Part shown: one piece after another, positions 1,688 through 22,297 of the stretch | Layout: each line of letters opens with the position of its first letter | How positions within the stretch are numbered: position 1 is the stretch's first letter | From: Candidatus Aenigmatarchaeota archaeon | GTDB taxonomy: Archaea > Aenigmatarchaeota > Aenigmatarchaeia > CG10238-14 > SCSR01 | DNA: 64,000 nucleotides | Assembly (NCBI GenBank): GCA_038998335.1 | Contig: JAVZHQ010000001.1 | Location: forward strand, 219,281-283,280 | Direction of reading: 5' to 3' | Program-made: the position numbers and the translations under genes | The notes under the pieces: generated by a model | What the model saw: the letters and a program-made list of their open reading frames with translations, nothing else | Databases searched by the model: none | Told to the model about the DNA's origin: nothing

Positions 1688-1927
1688 ATGATTAATTATA
1701 GAGAAAAAATCATCGAAATTTTAAAAAAATCAAATGGTTTAACTTTTTCAAGTATAGAGGTTGAATTACTCAGAAGCTTGAGTGAAAGTGAGAAAAGAGA
1801 GTACAGATTTGATAAGTTTTTTGTTGCTATTTATGATTTAGAAAATGATGGTATAATATTTAGGGGAAAAGGAGGAGAATTTGAGAAAGGAAAGTTTTAC
1901 TTAAAGCTTAAAAATAGCAATTCCTAA
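1688..1927 (+). CDS. hypothetical small protein
   Basis: 79 aa ORF directly upstream of tmk, no recognisable motif. Confidence 0.3.
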   Translation: MINYREKIIEILKKSNGLTFSSIEVELLRSLSESEKREYRFDKFFVAIYDLENDGIIFRGKGGEFEKGKFYLKLKNSNS

Positions 1928-1934
1928 CTTTTTT

Positions 1935-2555
1935 TTGATGAAAGGATTATTTATAGTGTTCGAAGGAATTACCGGCTCTGGTAAAAAAACCCACATAAAA
2001 CTTTTAGTAGAAAAACTGAAAGAAAAGGGGAAAGAAGTTACTGTAATTTCTTTTCCTAATTATGAAAGTGAAATAGCAAGATTTACAAAAAGAGCTGATT
2101 TAGACGCTTACACTCAATCTTTACTTTTTGCTGCTGATAGAAGTCTTTACCAGGAAAGGATTAAAGCTTTACTTGAAAAAGGAAACGTAATTCTTTGCGA
2201 TAGATATTGTTACAGTAACTTTGCCTATCAAGCTGCTAAAGGCTTACCTTTAGGATGGCTTAAAGAAATAGAAAAACATACCATTAAGCCTGATATTGTT
2301 TTTTTGATTGATGTGCCAGTTGAAATTAGCATGAACAGAGTTAAACAGTTAAGCATTGAAGATTTCACTAAAAAGGAAATACTTGAAAGGTTGGAAAGGG
2401 AAAAAGACTTTCTGGAAAAAATAAGGGAAATTTACTTGAGTTTAGCTGTAACTGATAAAGAAACTAAATGGTTTGTTATTAATGGTTCAGAAGATATTTC
2501 TGTTAATCATGAAAAAATTTGGAAAAAGGTAAAAGAAGAACTTAAAATTGAGTAG
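1935..2555 (+). CDS. tmk: thymidylate kinase
   Basis: N-terminal P-loop 'FIVFEGITGSGKKT' and overall length (206 aa) typical of dTMP kinase. Confidence 0.8.
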   Translation: MMKGLFIVFEGITGSGKKTHIKLLVEKLKEKGKEVTVISFPNYESEIARFTKRADLDAYTQSLLFAADRSLYQERIKALLEKGNVILCDRYCYSNFAYQAAKGLPLGWLKEIEKHTIKPDIVFLIDVPVEISMNRVKQLSIEDFTKKEILERLEREKDFLEKIREIYLSLAVTDKETKWFVINGSEDISVNHEKIWKKVKEELKIE

Positions 2556-2569
2556 AGTTTTTTTCAACT

Positions 2570-2587
2570 TTGTTAGACGTCTAACAA
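2570..2587. repeat. perfect 18-bp palindrome ttgttagacgtctaacaa (copy 1 of 2)
   Basis: Self-complementary; core tgttagacgtctaaca repeated at 3293-3308; T-rich 5' flank and A-rich 3' flank. Confidence 0.6.
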
Positions 2588-2624
2588 AAAATAAAATTTA
2601 AAAATAGAAAATTAATTTACAATT

Positions 2625-3233
2625 ATGAAGCTTTTGACCTCGCCGGTCGAGGCTTTAAAGGAAGCAAAAACAAAAAAAAGTTTTGGTAAAACCATAGGAA
2701 TATTAGTAATTTCAGCAATACTTTTTGGTTTATCTGTAGCAATATTTCCTCTAGGATTTTCAACAACTCCTGTTAGGGCAGTACCAACCTTTTCTACAAT
2801 GACCTTTGCTGTAATTTTTGTAGGTACGTTAATACTTGGTTTATTCTACGGCTATCTAGCAAAGTTAGTAATGAACATTCTTGGAGGTAAAGGGAAGTAC
2901 TTCGAAGGTCTAACGACAATAACCTACTCCATATTCCCCTTTTCTGTAGGTTTATTTATAGTAGCACTACTAAATTACGCGTTACTTCAAGTGCAGCAAA
3001 TAGCCCAATATTATTTGGTAACAATCTTTATCCAAGGGTTTATTCTATCGGTATTTACAGCACTCGGGTTAGCAGTATTTTACAAAGGACTTAACGAACT
3101 TTTCCAAGTGGATATGATAGCTGCATTGGTTGGTGCAGGAATACTTTTCTCAACACTTTGGATTGCATTTTATGGACTAATCTTTAGTTTGATGGGAGCT
3201 TTTATCCCGCTAGTTCCATCGATTAGACCATAA
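2625..3233 (+). CDS. multi-pass membrane protein (Yip1-like, tentative)
   Basis: 202 aa, several hydrophobic segments; flanked on both sides by the palindrome. Confidence 0.35.
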   Translation: MKLLTSPVEALKEAKTKKSFGKTIGILVISAILFGLSVAIFPLGFSTTPVRAVPTFSTMTFAVIFVGTLILGLFYGYLAKLVMNILGGKGKYFEGLTTITYSIFPFSVGLFIVALLNYALLQVQQIAQYYLVTIFIQGFILSVFTALGLAVFYKGLNELFQVDMIAALVGAGILFSTLWIAFYGLIFSLMGAFIPLVPSIRP

Positions 3234-3291
3234 AATCGTAAGCTAATTTTTCCTTTTTCTTTTTTTCAAAAATTTTTAAAGAGTTTTTTTA

Positions 3292-3309
3292 ATGTTAGAC
3301 GTCTAACAT
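3292..3309. repeat. perfect 18-bp palindrome atgttagacgtctaacat (copy 2 of 2)
   Basis: Same 16-bp core as 2571-2586; again T-run before and A-run after. Confidence 0.6.
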
Positions 3310-3333
3310 GGAAAAAAATTTAAGAATTAAAAC

Positions 3334-3341
3334 TTTTAAAA
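3334..3341 (+). promoter_or_regulatory. TATA-box-like element upstream of tRNA-Glu
   Basis: 'ttttaaaa' about 20-25 nt upstream of the mature tRNA 5' end, consistent with archaeal TATA placement. Confidence 0.3.
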
Positions 3342-3359
3342 GAAATTTATTTTAAGGAT

Positions 3360-3434
3360 GCCCCCTTCGTCTAGTCCGGCTAAGGATACGAGCCTTTCGA
3401 GCTCGGGACACGGGTTCAAATCCCGTAGGGGGCA
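3360..3434 (+). tRNA. tRNA-Glu (anticodon UUC)
   Basis: Acceptor gccccct/agggggc, anticodon stem cgagc/gctcg, loop ctTTCga, T-loop ttcaaat. Confidence 0.85.
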
Positions 3435-3497
3435 TGTCCTTTTCAATTTTATCGAATTGTTAAAAAGATTAAAAAAGAAAAATAAAATTTATTATAG

Positions 3498-3830
3498 GTG
3501 AGAGAAATGGGTGCACCAACTTTGTATGTAGTAGATGTGATAAAAAACATTTTATCTTATATTAGCAAGTTAATTCCAAAATCTAAAGTAAGAGTTAACG
3601 AGCTTGGAAGAGGCGAAATATTTTACAAACCAATTATTGGAGAGGAGAGAAAACTTGTAGAAGTTTACGGGACTTCAGAAAGAAGAGGAGAAAGTGTCGG
3701 GAATCATCGAATAGTAGTTGATTTTAAAGATCCATCTTTGAAAGAAGATCCAAAACTTATGGAGTTTCTCTATAAGCAAAAAAAGGAGATTTCTGAGCAG
3801 AAAGAGCCTATAGAACTTGTAATAAAATAG
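3498..3830 (+). CDS. hypothetical protein
   Basis: 110 aa ORF, no recognisable motif. Confidence 0.3.
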   Translation: MREMGAPTLYVVDVIKNILSYISKLIPKSKVRVNELGRGEIFYKPIIGEERKLVEVYGTSERRGESVGNHRIVVDFKDPSLKEDPKLMEFLYKQKKEISEQKEPIELVIK

Positions 3831-9886: not shown

Positions 9887-11077
9887 ATGGCATCTATTAG
9901 TAGACTTAAATCTTTTTCTAACTATATTTTTACCATGAGAATAAAATATTCTGATTTTGTTGATTATAGAAAACTAGACCCTGTTAAAAAAATGGCTTTA
10001 GAAATTTTTGAACCAACTCTAAAATATCCTGAAAGATTAGGATTAAGACTACTACCAGAAAGTTTAGGGCAGACAGCTCCTATTTTTGAGCCTGTTGGAA
10101 TAAAAGATTCAGATTTTTTGATAGTAGGTCCAAACGTAGAAGGACTTGGAACAAAAAACTTAGTTGCAGATTGCATGTACAATGAAATTGTTGAGAAAAA
10201 AAGGATTGCAGAAAATTTGGATGTTAAAAAATTGTATAGATGTATAGGACAAGATACAGCTGCTATGTCAGTTAACGATGTTTTGGCCGTTGGTGCAGAC
10301 CCATACGTTTACTGTGATATAATTGCATGTGGAAAAGCATCATGGTTTGATGACCTTGAAAGAACAAGAGAATTGCTGTTAGGATACAGACAGGCTGCTG
10401 ATATAGGACAGTTTGCAATTCCTCAAGGTGAAACTCCTGAACTACCTGGAATAGTAAACTCTGAAACTTTGGATTTGGCTGGAGCTTCTTGCGGGCTAGT
10501 AAGACCAAAGAGCAGATACATTACTGGAGAAAAAATAGAGGAAGGGGATATAATTTATGGACTTGCAAGTAGTGGGATTCATGCTAATGGTTTGAGCAAG
10601 GCAAGAAAGATTGCAGAAAAACTTCCTGAAGGTTTCTTTACAGAGCTATCTAACGGAAAAACCTTAGGTGAAGAACTTTTAACTCCTACTCACATTTACT
10701 CTAGGTTAGTAATGGAATTGTTTGAATTTATAGATATTCACTTTTTACAGCCAATAACTGGGCATGGATGGAAAAAAATTATGAGGGTAAGAAAACCTTT
10801 TACCTATGTGATAGAGAATGTTCCAGAGCCATCTTTAATCTTTCAGGAATTAATTGAGTTTGGGAAAAAATATGGTTTTGATGTTTCTGATTTTGAAAAT
10901 TATCAAGTATGGAATATGGGCGTTGGATATATTATCATAGGGCCTAAATTTGATGTAGATGCTGTAAGAAAAGTAGTTAGAAGAAATTCTAATATAGAAG
11001 TCTACGAGTTGGGCTATGTAAAAAAAGGAGAAAAGCAAGTAATAATAAAACCAAAAAATATTGTGTATAAGGATTAA
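9887..11077 (+). CDS. purM: phosphoribosylformylglycinamidine cyclo-ligase (AIR synthase, PurM-like)
   Basis: 'GETPELPGIV' and 'GIHANG' resemble PurM motifs; directly upstream of purB. Confidence 0.6.
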   Translation: MASISRLKSFSNYIFTMRIKYSDFVDYRKLDPVKKMALEIFEPTLKYPERLGLRLLPESLGQTAPIFEPVGIKDSDFLIVGPNVEGLGTKNLVADCMYNEIVEKKRIAENLDVKKLYRCIGQDTAAMSVNDVLAVGADPYVYCDIIACGKASWFDDLERTRELLLGYRQAADIGQFAIPQGETPELPGIVNSETLDLAGASCGLVRPKSRYITGEKIEEGDIIYGLASSGIHANGLSKARKIAEKLPEGFFTELSNGKTLGEELLTPTHIYSRLVMELFEFIDIHFLQPITGHGWKKIMRVRKPFTYVIENVPEPSLIFQELIEFGKKYGFDVSDFENYQVWNMGVGYIIIGPKFDVDAVRKVVRRNSNIEVYELGYVKKGEKQVIIKPKNIVYKD

Positions 11078-11093
11078 AAATTTAGGTGATAAA

Positions 11094-12497
11094 ATGAGCG
11101 AAGAAAAAGTATCGATATTTGATTTGTTTTCTCCAACAGACTATAGGTACTCTGTTGAAGAATTAAAGCAATATCTATCAGAAGAGGCTTTTGTTAAGTA
11201 CAAATCAAAAGTGGAAGCAGCGTTAGCTAAAGTTAAAGCAAGAAGAGGCATGATAACCCAAGAATCTGCTGAAGAAATTTTTAAAGCTTGTGAACAAGTT
11301 AAAGCAAAAGAAGTTTACGAGGAAGAAGAAAGAACAAGACATGACATAATAGCTCAAGTCAATATGATAAGGAAAAGAGTTAGTGATGAAGCAAAGCCAG
11401 CTGTACATGTACCAGCAACCTCTTATGATATAGTTGACACTGCTAATATGCTACGCTATAGAGATGCTTTTAAAAATGTTATTATTCCTGATATGGTTTC
11501 TTTGGAAAAAGTTTGGATAGAGCTAGCTAGAAAAGAAAAAGATACTTTACAAATAGGCAGAACTCATCTGCAGCATGCCGAACCTATAACATTTGGTTTT
11601 ACAATGGCCTGGTATGTTAGTAGGTTTGGAAGAAGAATTTTAAAAGTAAAAGAGGCGGTTGAAAGCTTGGAGGGGAAATTTTCAGGTGCAGTAGGCGCCT
11701 ATAACGCTTCTTCTTTATTTTTTGATAATCCTGAAGAATTTGAGAGAGAAGTTTTGGCAGAATTGGGAATAAAACCAACTGAAATTTCCACTCAAATAGT
11801 ACAACCAGAACCTTTAGCAGATTTGATGCATTATGTTTTTAGCAGCTTTAATATTCTAGCAAACTGGGCAAGAGATATGAGGAACTTGCAAAGACCAGAA
11901 ATAGGAGAAGTAGGTCAGCCAAGAGGTAAAGATATTTCAAGCTCTTCAACTATGCCACATAAAGCAAACCCTATAGGATTAGAAAATATAGAAAGTTTGT
12001 GGAAGGCAACGATTCCCTACATTTTCACAACTTATTTAGATCAAATTTCAGACCATCAACGTGACTTAACAAATTCTGCTTCCCAAAGGTTTATACCCCA
12101 AATACTTGTTCAGTTTGACTATGCTGTAAGAAGGGCTAAAAGAATTTCTGAAAACCTTAAACCCCATTATCACAATATGCTCAAAAACTTTGAAATGAAT
12201 AAGGACAAGATAATCGCAGAGCCTCTCCACGTCTTACTTTCTTTCTATGGGCATCCAAACTCTCATGAATACGTGAGCAAGCTCGTTGAACAGTCTTACT
12301 CTACTGGTAAACCATTAACAGAAATTATTACTCAAGATGAAAACCTTAAACCTTATCTTGAAAAGTTTACTGAAGAACAAAAGAATATGATTTTCAATCC
12401 TTCCAAATATGTTGGAATCGCTCCTCAAAAAGCAGAAAAAATTGCAAACTTTTGGGAAAAAAGACTTAAAGAGGCAATTTGTTATAACCAAAAATAA
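11094..12497 (+). CDS. purB: adenylosuccinate lyase
   Basis: Fumarate-lyase signature 'SSSSTMPHKANP'; start moved to ATG 11094 ('MSEEKVS') with 'aggtga' SD-like motif upstream; the track's 11061 start would overlap purM. Confidence 0.85.
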   Translation: MSEEKVSIFDLFSPTDYRYSVEELKQYLSEEAFVKYKSKVEAALAKVKARRGMITQESAEEIFKACEQVKAKEVYEEEERTRHDIIAQVNMIRKRVSDEAKPAVHVPATSYDIVDTANMLRYRDAFKNVIIPDMVSLEKVWIELARKEKDTLQIGRTHLQHAEPITFGFTMAWYVSRFGRRILKVKEAVESLEGKFSGAVGAYNASSLFFDNPEEFEREVLAELGIKPTEISTQIVQPEPLADLMHYVFSSFNILANWARDMRNLQRPEIGEVGQPRGKDISSSSTMPHKANPIGLENIESLWKATIPYIFTTYLDQISDHQRDLTNSASQRFIPQILVQFDYAVRRAKRISENLKPHYHNMLKNFEMNKDKIIAEPLHVLLSFYGHPNSHEYVSKLVEQSYSTGKPLTEIITQDENLKPYLEKFTEEQKNMIFNPSKYVGIAPQKAEKIANFWEKRLKEAICYNQK

Positions 12498-22193: not shown

Positions 22194-22211
22194 AAATAAA
22201 TTATTAGAAAG

Positions 22212-22297
22212 CCCTGGTAGCTCAGTTGGTTAGAGCGCATAGTTTAGCGTAAGCTTGGTAAGCATGAGGTCCCGGGTTCAAGTCCCGGCCAGGGCTT
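22212..22297 (+). tRNA. tRNA-Thr (anticodon GGU) with a 12-nt intron inside the anticodon stem (22242-22253)
   Basis: Acceptor gccctgg/ccagggc, D-arm gctc-agttggtta-gagc, T-arm ccggg-ttcaagt-cccgg; removing agtttagcgtaa gives a perfect 5-bp anticodon stem catgc/gcatg with loop ttGGTaa. Confidence 0.6.

Follow-up and report, generated by a model that had tools for sequence, protein, structure and literature searches.

The DNA analyzed here is a 64,000-nucleotide stretch from an assembly of a Candidatus Aenigmatarchaeota archaeon (GCA_038998335.1, contig JAVZHQ010000001.1, positions 219,281 to 283,280 of the forward strand), referred to below as the window. Its best DNA matches, which include a metagenome-assembled genome (MAG) from the Jinze hot spring (96%), and its DUF763 gene both place it in Aenigmatarchaeota. 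Near its start lie a thymidylate kinase gene (tmk), a gene for a Yip1-domain membrane protein and a tRNA-Glu gene, and a 16-bp perfect palindrome, TGTTAGACGTCTAACA, occurs on both sides of the Yip1 gene, giving the order tmk, pal1, Yip1, pal2, tRNA-Glu (Table 1). A preliminary description of this DNA had pointed out the two identical palindromes and offered three possible meanings for them: an operator for a dimeric transcription factor, a bidirectional terminator-like hairpin, or the boundary of an inserted cassette carrying the membrane-protein gene.

An exact search recovered both copies, and they were the only matches to TGTTAGACGTCTAACA in the window even with up to three mismatches allowed, against a mean of 0.22 in shuffled sequence. 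By our own estimate, one given 16-mer is expected to occur exactly about 2e-5 times in 64 kb at 32% GC. The shuffles, together with the genome-wide counts given below, rule out chance as the source of the pair, as the preliminary description had supposed. The half-site TGTTAGAC was found singly just once in the window, and an enrichment of half-sites was rejected on that ground. Between the tmk stop codon (TAG, 2553-2555) and pal1 are 15 nt, and 38 nt separate pal1 from the Yip1 ATG (2625); for pal2 the gaps are 59 nt to the Yip1 stop codon (3231-3233) on the upstream side and 51 nt to the 5′ end of tRNA-Glu (about 3360) on the downstream side. The T-rich upstream and A-rich downstream flanks that had been described are real: a T7 run precedes each copy, which from what is generally known of archaeal termination may serve as an oligo-T terminator, and an A-rich tract follows it (AAAAATAAAA after pal1, A7 after pal2). 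Altogether the likeness between the two surroundings spans about 55 bp (T-run, palindrome, A-run, TTTAA), with a common AGAGTTTTTTT upstream and AAAATTTAA.AAT downstream. Because unrelated copies elsewhere have the same layout of T-run, A-run and TATA box, we attribute this resemblance to a common function, and a long mobile element or a recent 55-bp duplication was rejected.

The exact 16-mer was present in 84 stretches in a scan holding one genome per prokaryotic species. About 60 of these come from 13 MAGs labeled Aenigmatarchaeota or 'uncultured archaeon', which have genes in common; the rest are single matches in assorted bacteria. A metagenome scan gave at least 120 stretches, and viral contigs contributed five single matches, which we judge to be at about chance level. 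Copy numbers were 16 in JZ-1_201709_bins_53, 13 in KM4338-55, and 11 each in STF170223_bin_388 and SRP141559_co2_35 (GC about 0.47), or roughly 10-20 per genome, where about 3e-4 chance copies would be expected in a 1-Mb genome of such composition (own estimate). All 82 copies in the archaeal loci are intergenic; in addition to these 82 exact copies, six with one mismatch and one with two were found, in loci whose GC content ranges from 0.30 to about 0.50. Copies can be locally clustered (four within 8 kb of a 94-kb scaffold; four within 6.6 kb of an 83-kb scaffold), and on the 840-kb contig Ga0315279_10000004 they lie at about 8-16, 47, 86, 92, 160 and 821 kb among the matches listed. The exact 16-mer thus occurs about 10-16 times per genome in at least 13 Aenigmatarchaeota MAGs. 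The palindrome is thus a near-invariant DNA site between genes of hot-spring Aenigmatarchaeota.

Some features of individual copies deserve mention. Read on either strand, the palindrome has a stop codon in two of the three frames (TGT TAG, GTC TAA), and open reading frames (ORFs) that enter it end in ...MLDV and a stop, as does the 205-aa gene of locus L026 (palindrome at L026 5560-5575). At L038 6229-6244 a copy lies 88 nt past the 3′ end of a 16S rRNA gene that is about 2.3 kb from tRNA-Ala and 23S. Three Clostridia-type MAGs have the 16-mer as a single operator-like site after a TTGACA...TATAAT promoter (L017 5528, L033 1117, L042 1691), an unrelated organism has two abutting copies (L124 12-43), and L120 has four copies in the form GGGG-palindrome-CCC.

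Many of the copies take up a set position relative to promoters. In the first archaeal set, 30 of the 66 start codons that face a palindrome lie 31-53 nt from its edge; in a second set, drawn from 43 metagenome loci, 25 of 53 do so at 36-53 nt. Facing gene ends are mostly 0-25 nt away, and tRNA 5′ ends follow the palindrome at 42-50 nt (the window, L003, L034 and L073), the tRNAs outside the window at 42-48 nt. On the promoter side (n=30), a TATA-like box begins 9-12 nt from the palindrome edge in most flanks, with T at a frequency of 0.73 at +11, where the box starts, and A at 0.60-0.67 from +3 to +7. Outward flanks from either edge show T/A at +1/+2, an A-rich stretch from +3 to +9 (0.55-0.67 A) and T at +11/+12. 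Outward A-runs of at least five, which are T-runs when read inward, border 44% of palindrome sides as compared with 7.6% of control intergenic sides; beyond the core, the flanks are alike in composition only. Among 98 genes, TATA-like hexamers are most frequent 30 to 27 nt before the ATG (-30 to -27), and Shine-Dalgarno-like motifs occur in only 14; the mRNAs are therefore mostly leaderless. From this it follows that the usual layout is stop codon, T-run, palindrome, 2 nt, an A-rich tract resembling the TFB recognition element (BRE), TATA box, about 25 nt, and start. Promoters with the site include those of TFB, of tyrosyl-tRNA synthetase (TyrRS) and seryl-tRNA synthetase and of tRNAs, and the downstream genes have no common functional theme.

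The dyad is also retained at orthologous promoters of three to seven MAGs although their flanks have diverged: at the TFB promoter in seven MAGs, at TyrRS in three and at tRNA-Glu in seven loci. It is likewise kept at the promoter of a gene for a 226-aa PP-loop protein in three MAGs. Copies have been gained and lost as well, one tRNA having one or two depending on the genome, and neither target-site duplications nor a clean 16-bp insertion polymorphism was found at the copies. Homology on one side only was seen in 30 of 36 pairs of palindrome sites and in 7 of 18 control pairs, which is suggestive of more frequent synteny breaks at palindromes, although the pairs depend on one another and paralogues raise the number. 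Two palindromes in L011 enclose 1,808 bp with three genes, whereas the corresponding place in L001, with flanks that match, has one palindrome only; in L026, a 205-aa gene is inserted beside a palindrome and a second palindrome is absent.

Other variable segments were seen next to the site. The spacer from the TFB stop codon to the palindrome upstream of TyrRS is empty in L085 (11246-11312) and L021, holds the 205-aa gene, which encodes a membrane protein, in L026 (5562-6179), and holds a gene for a 284-aa TIM-barrel protein plus more in L002 (5170-7282) and L075. A gene for a DUF4143 AAA+ ATPase is flanked by palindromes in two MAGs (L019 4084-6969; L049 1012-2492) and is left as remnants among four palindromes in a third (L048 2974-3912). 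Boxes resembling origin recognition boxes (ORB-like, 'TTCCACAAAGG') near the copies of L019 and L025 turned out to be coding 3′ ends and remnants of DUF4143 ATPase genes. In KM4338-55, just the 3′ part of an intron-containing tRNA precedes a palindrome and a 227-aa gene, while a different contig holds the tRNA in intact form, again with a palindrome upstream (L069 3370-3420 and L052 215-330). An element that integrates into a tRNA gene leaves such a pattern.

One locus with two or three copies recurs: SUI1, palindrome (sometimes doubled), a 69-aa gene that we call p69, palindrome, TFB. Here the order at the promoter is different, namely TATA box, 2-3 nt, palindrome, 3-6 nt and ATG (L026, L075, L083, L016, L055, L063, L085-L088, L116, L201, L141), which in every MAG places this copy at -19 to -4 of the leaderless start. 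A second copy is often found upstream of the TATA box and another just past the stop codon. The AlphaFold model of p69 (pLDDT 95.6) has b-a-b-b-a-b topology, and its best Foldseek matches in the PDB are Cas2 proteins (e.g. 3exc, 2ivy) and several Cas1-Cas2 complexes, with best TM-scores of 0.65-0.73; in the model, p69 has a Cas2 fold. Like the Cas2 of CRISPR systems, it conserves an Asp at the end of strand 1 and has a Q-x-S-V-W motif resembling the Q-x-S-V-F of Cas2. It differs in falling below the curated Cas2 thresholds (Pfam 20.8 bits vs 23.8; NCBIfam TIGR01573 21.1 vs 24.5; PADLOC also sub-threshold), in having no cas1 or CRISPR array within 20 kb, its neighbors being SUI1, TFB and TyrRS, in forming a stand-alone family of about 67-76 aa, and in being tied to dispersed single palindromes and not to a repeat-spacer array. 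A profile search gave 94 family representatives at 50% identity, nearly all of them stand-alone proteins of 66-76 aa. No match to p69 was found in phage or plasmid collections, and a viral or plasmid origin was rejected on this result together with the five single viral motif matches. The exact Yip1 protein of the window is encoded in GCA_044343365.1, which also encodes p69 (P0001); on this ground, the window's genome encodes p69.

For ten more members of the family, the L027 paralogue, the L190 homologue and eight others, the upstream region was read. In seven of the ten, a TATA-like box is followed at once by a perfect palindrome of 14 bp or longer that ends 3-22 nt short of the ATG, and one has imperfect copies; of 484 other genes, only 2 show a perfect palindrome of such length in the 45 nt next to the ATG. 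Written as left and right halves separated by a slash, the variants are TGTTAAAC/GTTTAACA for P0027, TGTTATAC/GTATAACA for P0028 and P0033, which belong to two lineages, TGATACAC/GTGTATCA for P0030, TGATATAC/GTATATCA for P0035, GTTACAT/ATGTAAC for the L027 paralogue and TGTCTCAC/GTGAGACA for the L190 homologue; set beside TGTTAGACGTCTAACA, the variants of P0033 and P0030 read TGTTATACGTATAACA and TGATACACGTGTATCA. In GCA_000404305.1 (L223, L224), a stretch of 3.2 kb holds three copies of TGTTATACGTATAACA, two of which flank the Cas2-like gene, and in L190 the variant is again found on both sides of the Cas2-like gene. Paralogues within one genome, STF170223_bin_388, each have their own variant (L063 vs L027). 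The change is symmetric in both half-sites, affects several copies and is in step with p69, and the arrangement therefore resembles a co-evolving pair of protein and site. Since variants stand at the promoters of p69 homologues and, in the one lineage checked, the same variant stands in dispersed copies, we infer that p69 is the reader of the palindrome and its own repressor. Eight pairs of p69 helix 1 and palindrome positions 3 and 6 yielded no simple residue-to-base rule. Beside the Cas2-like homologue of L190, in the GC-rich lineage, are a PIN-domain gene (10432-11095, together with a small upstream gene), which we take from a reading of its sequence, and not from Pfam, to be VapC-like.

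Table 1. Features around the two palindromes of the window (positions of the 64,000-nucleotide stretch)
Feature	Position	Strand	Remarks
tmk, thymidylate kinase gene	1935..2555	+	upstream of pal1; Pfam Thymidylate_kin, E = 1.5e-36
T7 tract	2558..2564	+	candidate archaeal oligo-T terminator of tmk, between tmk stop and pal1; putative role
pal1, TGTTAGACGTCTAACA	2571..2586	.	-54 to -39 relative to the Yip1 ATG (presumed leaderless transcription start)
Yip1 promoter module	2587..2604	+	A-rich BRE-like tract 2587-2596 (AAAAATAAAA), then TATA-like TTTAAAAA 2597-2604, starting -28 from the Yip1 ATG
Yip1-domain membrane protein gene, 202 aa	2625..3233	+	bracketed by pal1 and pal2; Pfam Yip1, E = 1e-9
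T7 tract	3284..3290	+	candidate terminator directly 5′ of pal2, last of several T-runs past the Yip1 stop; putative role
pal2, TGTTAGACGTCTAACA	3293..3308	.	-67 to -52 relative to the tRNA-Glu 5′ end
tRNA-Glu promoter region	3312..3341	+	A7 tract 3312-3318 and two TATA-like boxes: TTTAAGAA at 3319-3326 (+11 from pal2) and TTTTAAAA at 3334-3341 (-26 from the tRNA-Glu 5′ end)
tRNA-Glu (UUC)	3359..3435	+	downstream of pal2; ARAGORN; Rfam tRNA 58.6 bits

Comparison with relatives shows how the Yip1 gene came to be bracketed. All relatives examined (L036, L080, L027, L214, L215 and L216) have an exact or one-mismatch copy at the position of pal2, and the tRNA-Glu promoter region is near-identical in L036, L080, L027, L215 and L216. 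The Yip1 gene is present in L012, L214, L215 and L216, the first three of which have the arrangement of the window, and is absent from L036 and L080, where tmk, a palindrome and tRNA-Glu follow directly. In L216, a distant relative whose Yip1 protein is 53% identical, the order is tmk, Yip1, palindrome, tRNA-Glu, and no palindrome lies upstream of Yip1. Yip1 is therefore ancestral here and has been deleted in some lineages; of the two palindromes, pal2 is the conserved one and pal1 was gained later. L036 retains, in addition to its intact palindrome, a decayed second copy, TGTTAGATACTAACA, 41 nt away (40 nt of filler); the deletion was therefore not a clean recombination between two palindromes. 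The window itself is a mosaic: positions 1-1395 are 96% identical to L036 and 83% to L012, whereas positions 1901-3285 are 94% identical to L012 and 88% to L036, which suggests recombination between lineages somewhere in 1396-1900. Two ORFs in the window without Pfam matches, 1688-1927 (79 aa) and 3498-3830 (110 aa), each lie beside a tRNA gene and are variably present, the former being absent from L036 and the latter from L080. At 22210-22297, ARAGORN predicts a tRNA with a four-base anticodon, 'ttag' (Rfam tRNA 52 bits), which may have an intron or an unusual anticodon loop.

These observations bear on two of the meanings that had been proposed. Were the palindromes att-like recombination sites, or cassette boundaries, for the insertion and excision of genes such as Yip1, one would expect what is indeed seen between the window and L036 or L080, where Yip1 and one palindrome form an indel, as the comparison with relatives lacking this ORF brought out; the segment between two palindromes in L011, the ATPase remnants among four palindromes in L048 and the enrichment of synteny breaks would also fit. 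The direction of the change is wrong, however, as Yip1 predates pal1 in the light of L216, and Yip1 as an inserted cassette was rejected on this basis. The deletion in L036 was unclean, the insertion in L026 lacks a second palindrome, the loci read show no recombinase linked to the sites, and no integrase, as would accompany an integron-like attC cassette, was found in the window flanks read or in L085. Moreover, 16 bp would be short in comparison with the sites of known tyrosine or serine recombinases. We regard a recombination site as improbable. A role in RNA, as a transcribed hairpin that terminates transcription or signals processing, we consider highly improbable. A stem of 6 bp around an ACGU loop can be formed, stop codons are often followed by a copy at 0-25 nt, and the imperfect palindromes of about 40 bp that had been described hold good for pal2, which with its flanks has 17-nt arms that are 88% complementary and an RNA fold of -12.2 kcal/mol (z = -4.35), but only weakly for pal1 (-7.6 kcal/mol, z = -1.9). 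However, the hairpin of the core palindrome is worth just -4 kcal/mol, the U-tract precedes the stem and does not follow it as it would the stable GC-rich hairpin of a bacterial-type intrinsic terminator, and a terminator scan gave no terminator-like match over pal1 or pal2. The copies are invariant, without compensatory changes, and copy by copy the flanks of 79 copies showed no complementarity beyond that predicted from their T/A composition; the extended 'palindrome' is therefore an effect of composition and not a selected stem. The copy at the p69 promoter lies upstream of a leaderless start and would therefore stay untranscribed, and archaeal termination does not require a hairpin. A search of Rfam near the copies returned nothing but tRNAs and rRNAs. 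On stem energy, terminator scan and flank pairing, a hairpin function was thus rejected.

The remaining proposal, an operator for a dimeric transcription factor, fits best of the three in view of the near-invariant dyad, its place next to BRE/TATA or, at one conserved gene, between TATA and ATG, and its retention at orthologous promoters. We propose that the palindrome is the recognition site of a dimeric DNA-binding protein, probably p69, that acts on transcription at gene boundaries, and to judge from the sequences we give this an even chance of being correct. What the sequences show is where the motif is distributed and positioned, how it is conserved and that it covaries with p69; that a protein binds it, which protein this is and whether Yip1 or tRNA-Glu would be raised or lowered are predictions at this stage. 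Each copy would mark the boundary of a transcription unit, with the oligo-T terminator of the incoming gene on one side and a BRE-like tract and TATA box about 10 nt away on the other. A protein bound upstream of BRE/TATA would be next to TFB/TBP or in contact with them, and the promoter that follows could be either stimulated or insulated by it; bound just past the T-run, it could block read-through, modulate the downstream promoter, or both. Between the TATA box and the ATG of its own gene, the protein would exclude RNA polymerase, resulting in self-repression. Archaeal dual-function transcription factors of the SurR, TrmB/TrmBL1 and TFB-RF1 type activate from upstream of BRE/TATA and repress from downstream of TATA, and the palindrome is likewise a symmetric site that stands directly upstream of BRE/TATA at many promoters and, at one, between the TATA box and the start, with a p69 gene arrangement like that of autoregulation. 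It differs from them in that the sites are almost invariant and not degenerate, are found also between convergent genes and have targets without a functional theme, and in that the candidate binder lacks a helix-turn-helix domain.

Several observations weigh against this proposal, chiefly the copies in convergent spacers and the GC-rich lineage. A pure promoter element should avoid spacers between convergent genes, yet no depletion was seen there: the classified copies comprised 9 convergent, 10 divergent and 35 tandem contexts in the first set (background 98, 94 and 256) and 9, 10 and 27 in the second, so that 9 of 54 and 9 of 46, about the background share, lie between convergent genes. In L085, which has proper gene calls, one copy indeed stands between two gene ends, and about half of all copies have no gene start within 60 nt. 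The promoter of a 98-aa winged-helix-turn-helix (wHTH) protein gene has the palindrome in L049 and none in the orthologous L048 promoter, and evidently works without the site. The homologues P0029 and P0032 have no palindrome upstream, and in the GC-rich lineage (SRP141559_co2_35 and Ga0190319 contigs), with at least 11 exact copies, the only Cas2-like gene seen has TGTCTCAC. Near-invariance of sites is unusual for the regulon of a transcription factor, and the invariant Asp8 of p69, a Cas2 metal-binding residue, would fit a nuclease equally well. We know of no Cas2-fold protein that is a sequence-specific DNA binder. The literature that could be searched held neither the 16-mer nor such a motif in DPANN archaea, nor a sequence-specific Cas2-like protein or regulator.

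The main rival to a p69 operator is a system of the kind formed by REP sequences and RAYT proteins, in which a short extragenic repeat would be spread or maintained by p69 as a nuclease or recombination factor and any effects on transcription would be secondary or co-opted. In REPIN/RAYT systems, repeats of its own type stand on either side of a single-copy gene, each type being paired with its gene, and the repeats are bordered by A/T runs (PMC3337134). Such features are found here too: the palindromes are short, dispersed and extragenic in all orientation classes; the single-copy cognate gene lies between repeats of its own type in at least three lineages, even where its downstream neighbor is convergent; paralogues each have their own type (L063 vs L027, and the L190 homologue); and A/T runs border the copies, which are almost identical, locally clustered and inherited vertically with long persistence. 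The gains and losses at orthologous sites, the excess of synteny breaks among pairs that are not independent, the 1.8-kb stretch of L011 as a second palindrome-bounded indel and Asp8 would all suit such a system, and the shared features count among the hallmarks of REPIN/RAYT (PMC3337134). On the other hand, p69 is a 69-aa protein with a Cas2 fold, where RAYT is an IS200/IS605-like HUH tyrosine transposase, and strand transfer by p69 alone is hard to see. Here the repeat is a single perfect 16-bp dyad and not a REPIN doublet of imperfect hairpins, copies number about 10-20 per genome and not hundreds, and the host is a DPANN archaeon and not a bacterium. The lack of target-site duplications and of clean insertion polymorphisms, the many BRE/TATA-adjacent positions that are orthologous across species with diverged flanks, and the family's want of matches in phage or plasmid collections speak against it as well, and the own-promoter copy, at a repressor position exactly between TATA and ATG in all lineages, is typical of autoregulation. 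We therefore hold this account to be unlikely, if the most serious of the alternatives.

Alternatively, the palindrome could be the operator of a different global transcription factor or nucleoid protein, including a general regulatory factor or a roadblock insulator that, once bound, would halt read-through at the neighboring T-run from either side, with the Cas2-like gene as merely its most repressed target. All the positional evidence would apply equally, T-runs stand directly before the palindrome on both strands, the indifference to convergent, tandem or divergent spacers suits a boundary element free of orientation, and the GC-rich lineage has many palindromes for which a matching p69 was not seen. 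Such a factor, itself unseen, would have to shift its specificity whenever the promoter of the Cas2-like gene changes, across at least seven lineages, which is less economical than autoregulation, and the two DNA-binding genes considered near palindromes do not fit: the AsnC/Lrp gene of L085 has a copy only past its stop codon, and the 98-aa wHTH protein has GGAATATTCC boxes of its own, on which ground, and for the lack of a palindrome at its L048 orthologue, it was rejected as the binder. This account appears quite unlikely to us. The 98-aa winged-helix gene forms an operon with a V4R-like gene; its TATAAATA box stands between GGAATATTCC and GGAATATCC boxes (L019 340-440; L051 3180-3265), and it looks like a separate autoregulated factor.

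The palindrome was also compared with the bacterial parS centromere bound by ParB, the consensus of which is TGTTNCACGTGAAACA. Both are perfect 16-bp palindromes, invariant across a clade, with a handful of locally clustered copies per genome. Twelve of 16 positions agree (TGTT..ACGT..AACA), with differences at positions 5, 6, 11 and 12, and the L190 variant, TGTCTCACGTGAGACA, agrees at 14 of 16. In contrast to parS, the copies here are strictly intergenic, are spread over many scaffolds and have a variant that tracks the Cas2-like gene; no ParB gene was seen, although no systematic search for one was made.

A recognition site for p69 has implications beyond the Yip1 locus, where the bracketing of a gene by identical sequences is explained without the insertion of a cassette. 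DPANN archaea have tiny genomes in which the control of transcription is almost unstudied, and here a near-invariant cis-element, found in lineages of 30% to 50% GC, comes with a specific candidate partner. Tentatively, and with somewhat less than even confidence, we generalize that the stand-alone Cas2-fold family of about 70 aa in Aenigmatarchaeota comprises sequence-specific binders or nickases of 16-bp palindromes of the form TGnnnnAC/GTnnnnCA, each member repressing itself and owning 10-20 boundary sites, and protein and site diversifying together. If true, this would be a new role of the Cas2 fold in DNA recognition, and it would provide an uncultivated phylum with a simple pair of protein and site that has natural specificity variants. 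With Cas2 as its scaffold, p69 and its palindromes would then be an archaeal parallel to REPIN/RAYT, or else p69 would be the first transcription factor of this fold, and the pair might bear on how Cas2 became associated with the palindromic repeats of CRISPR.

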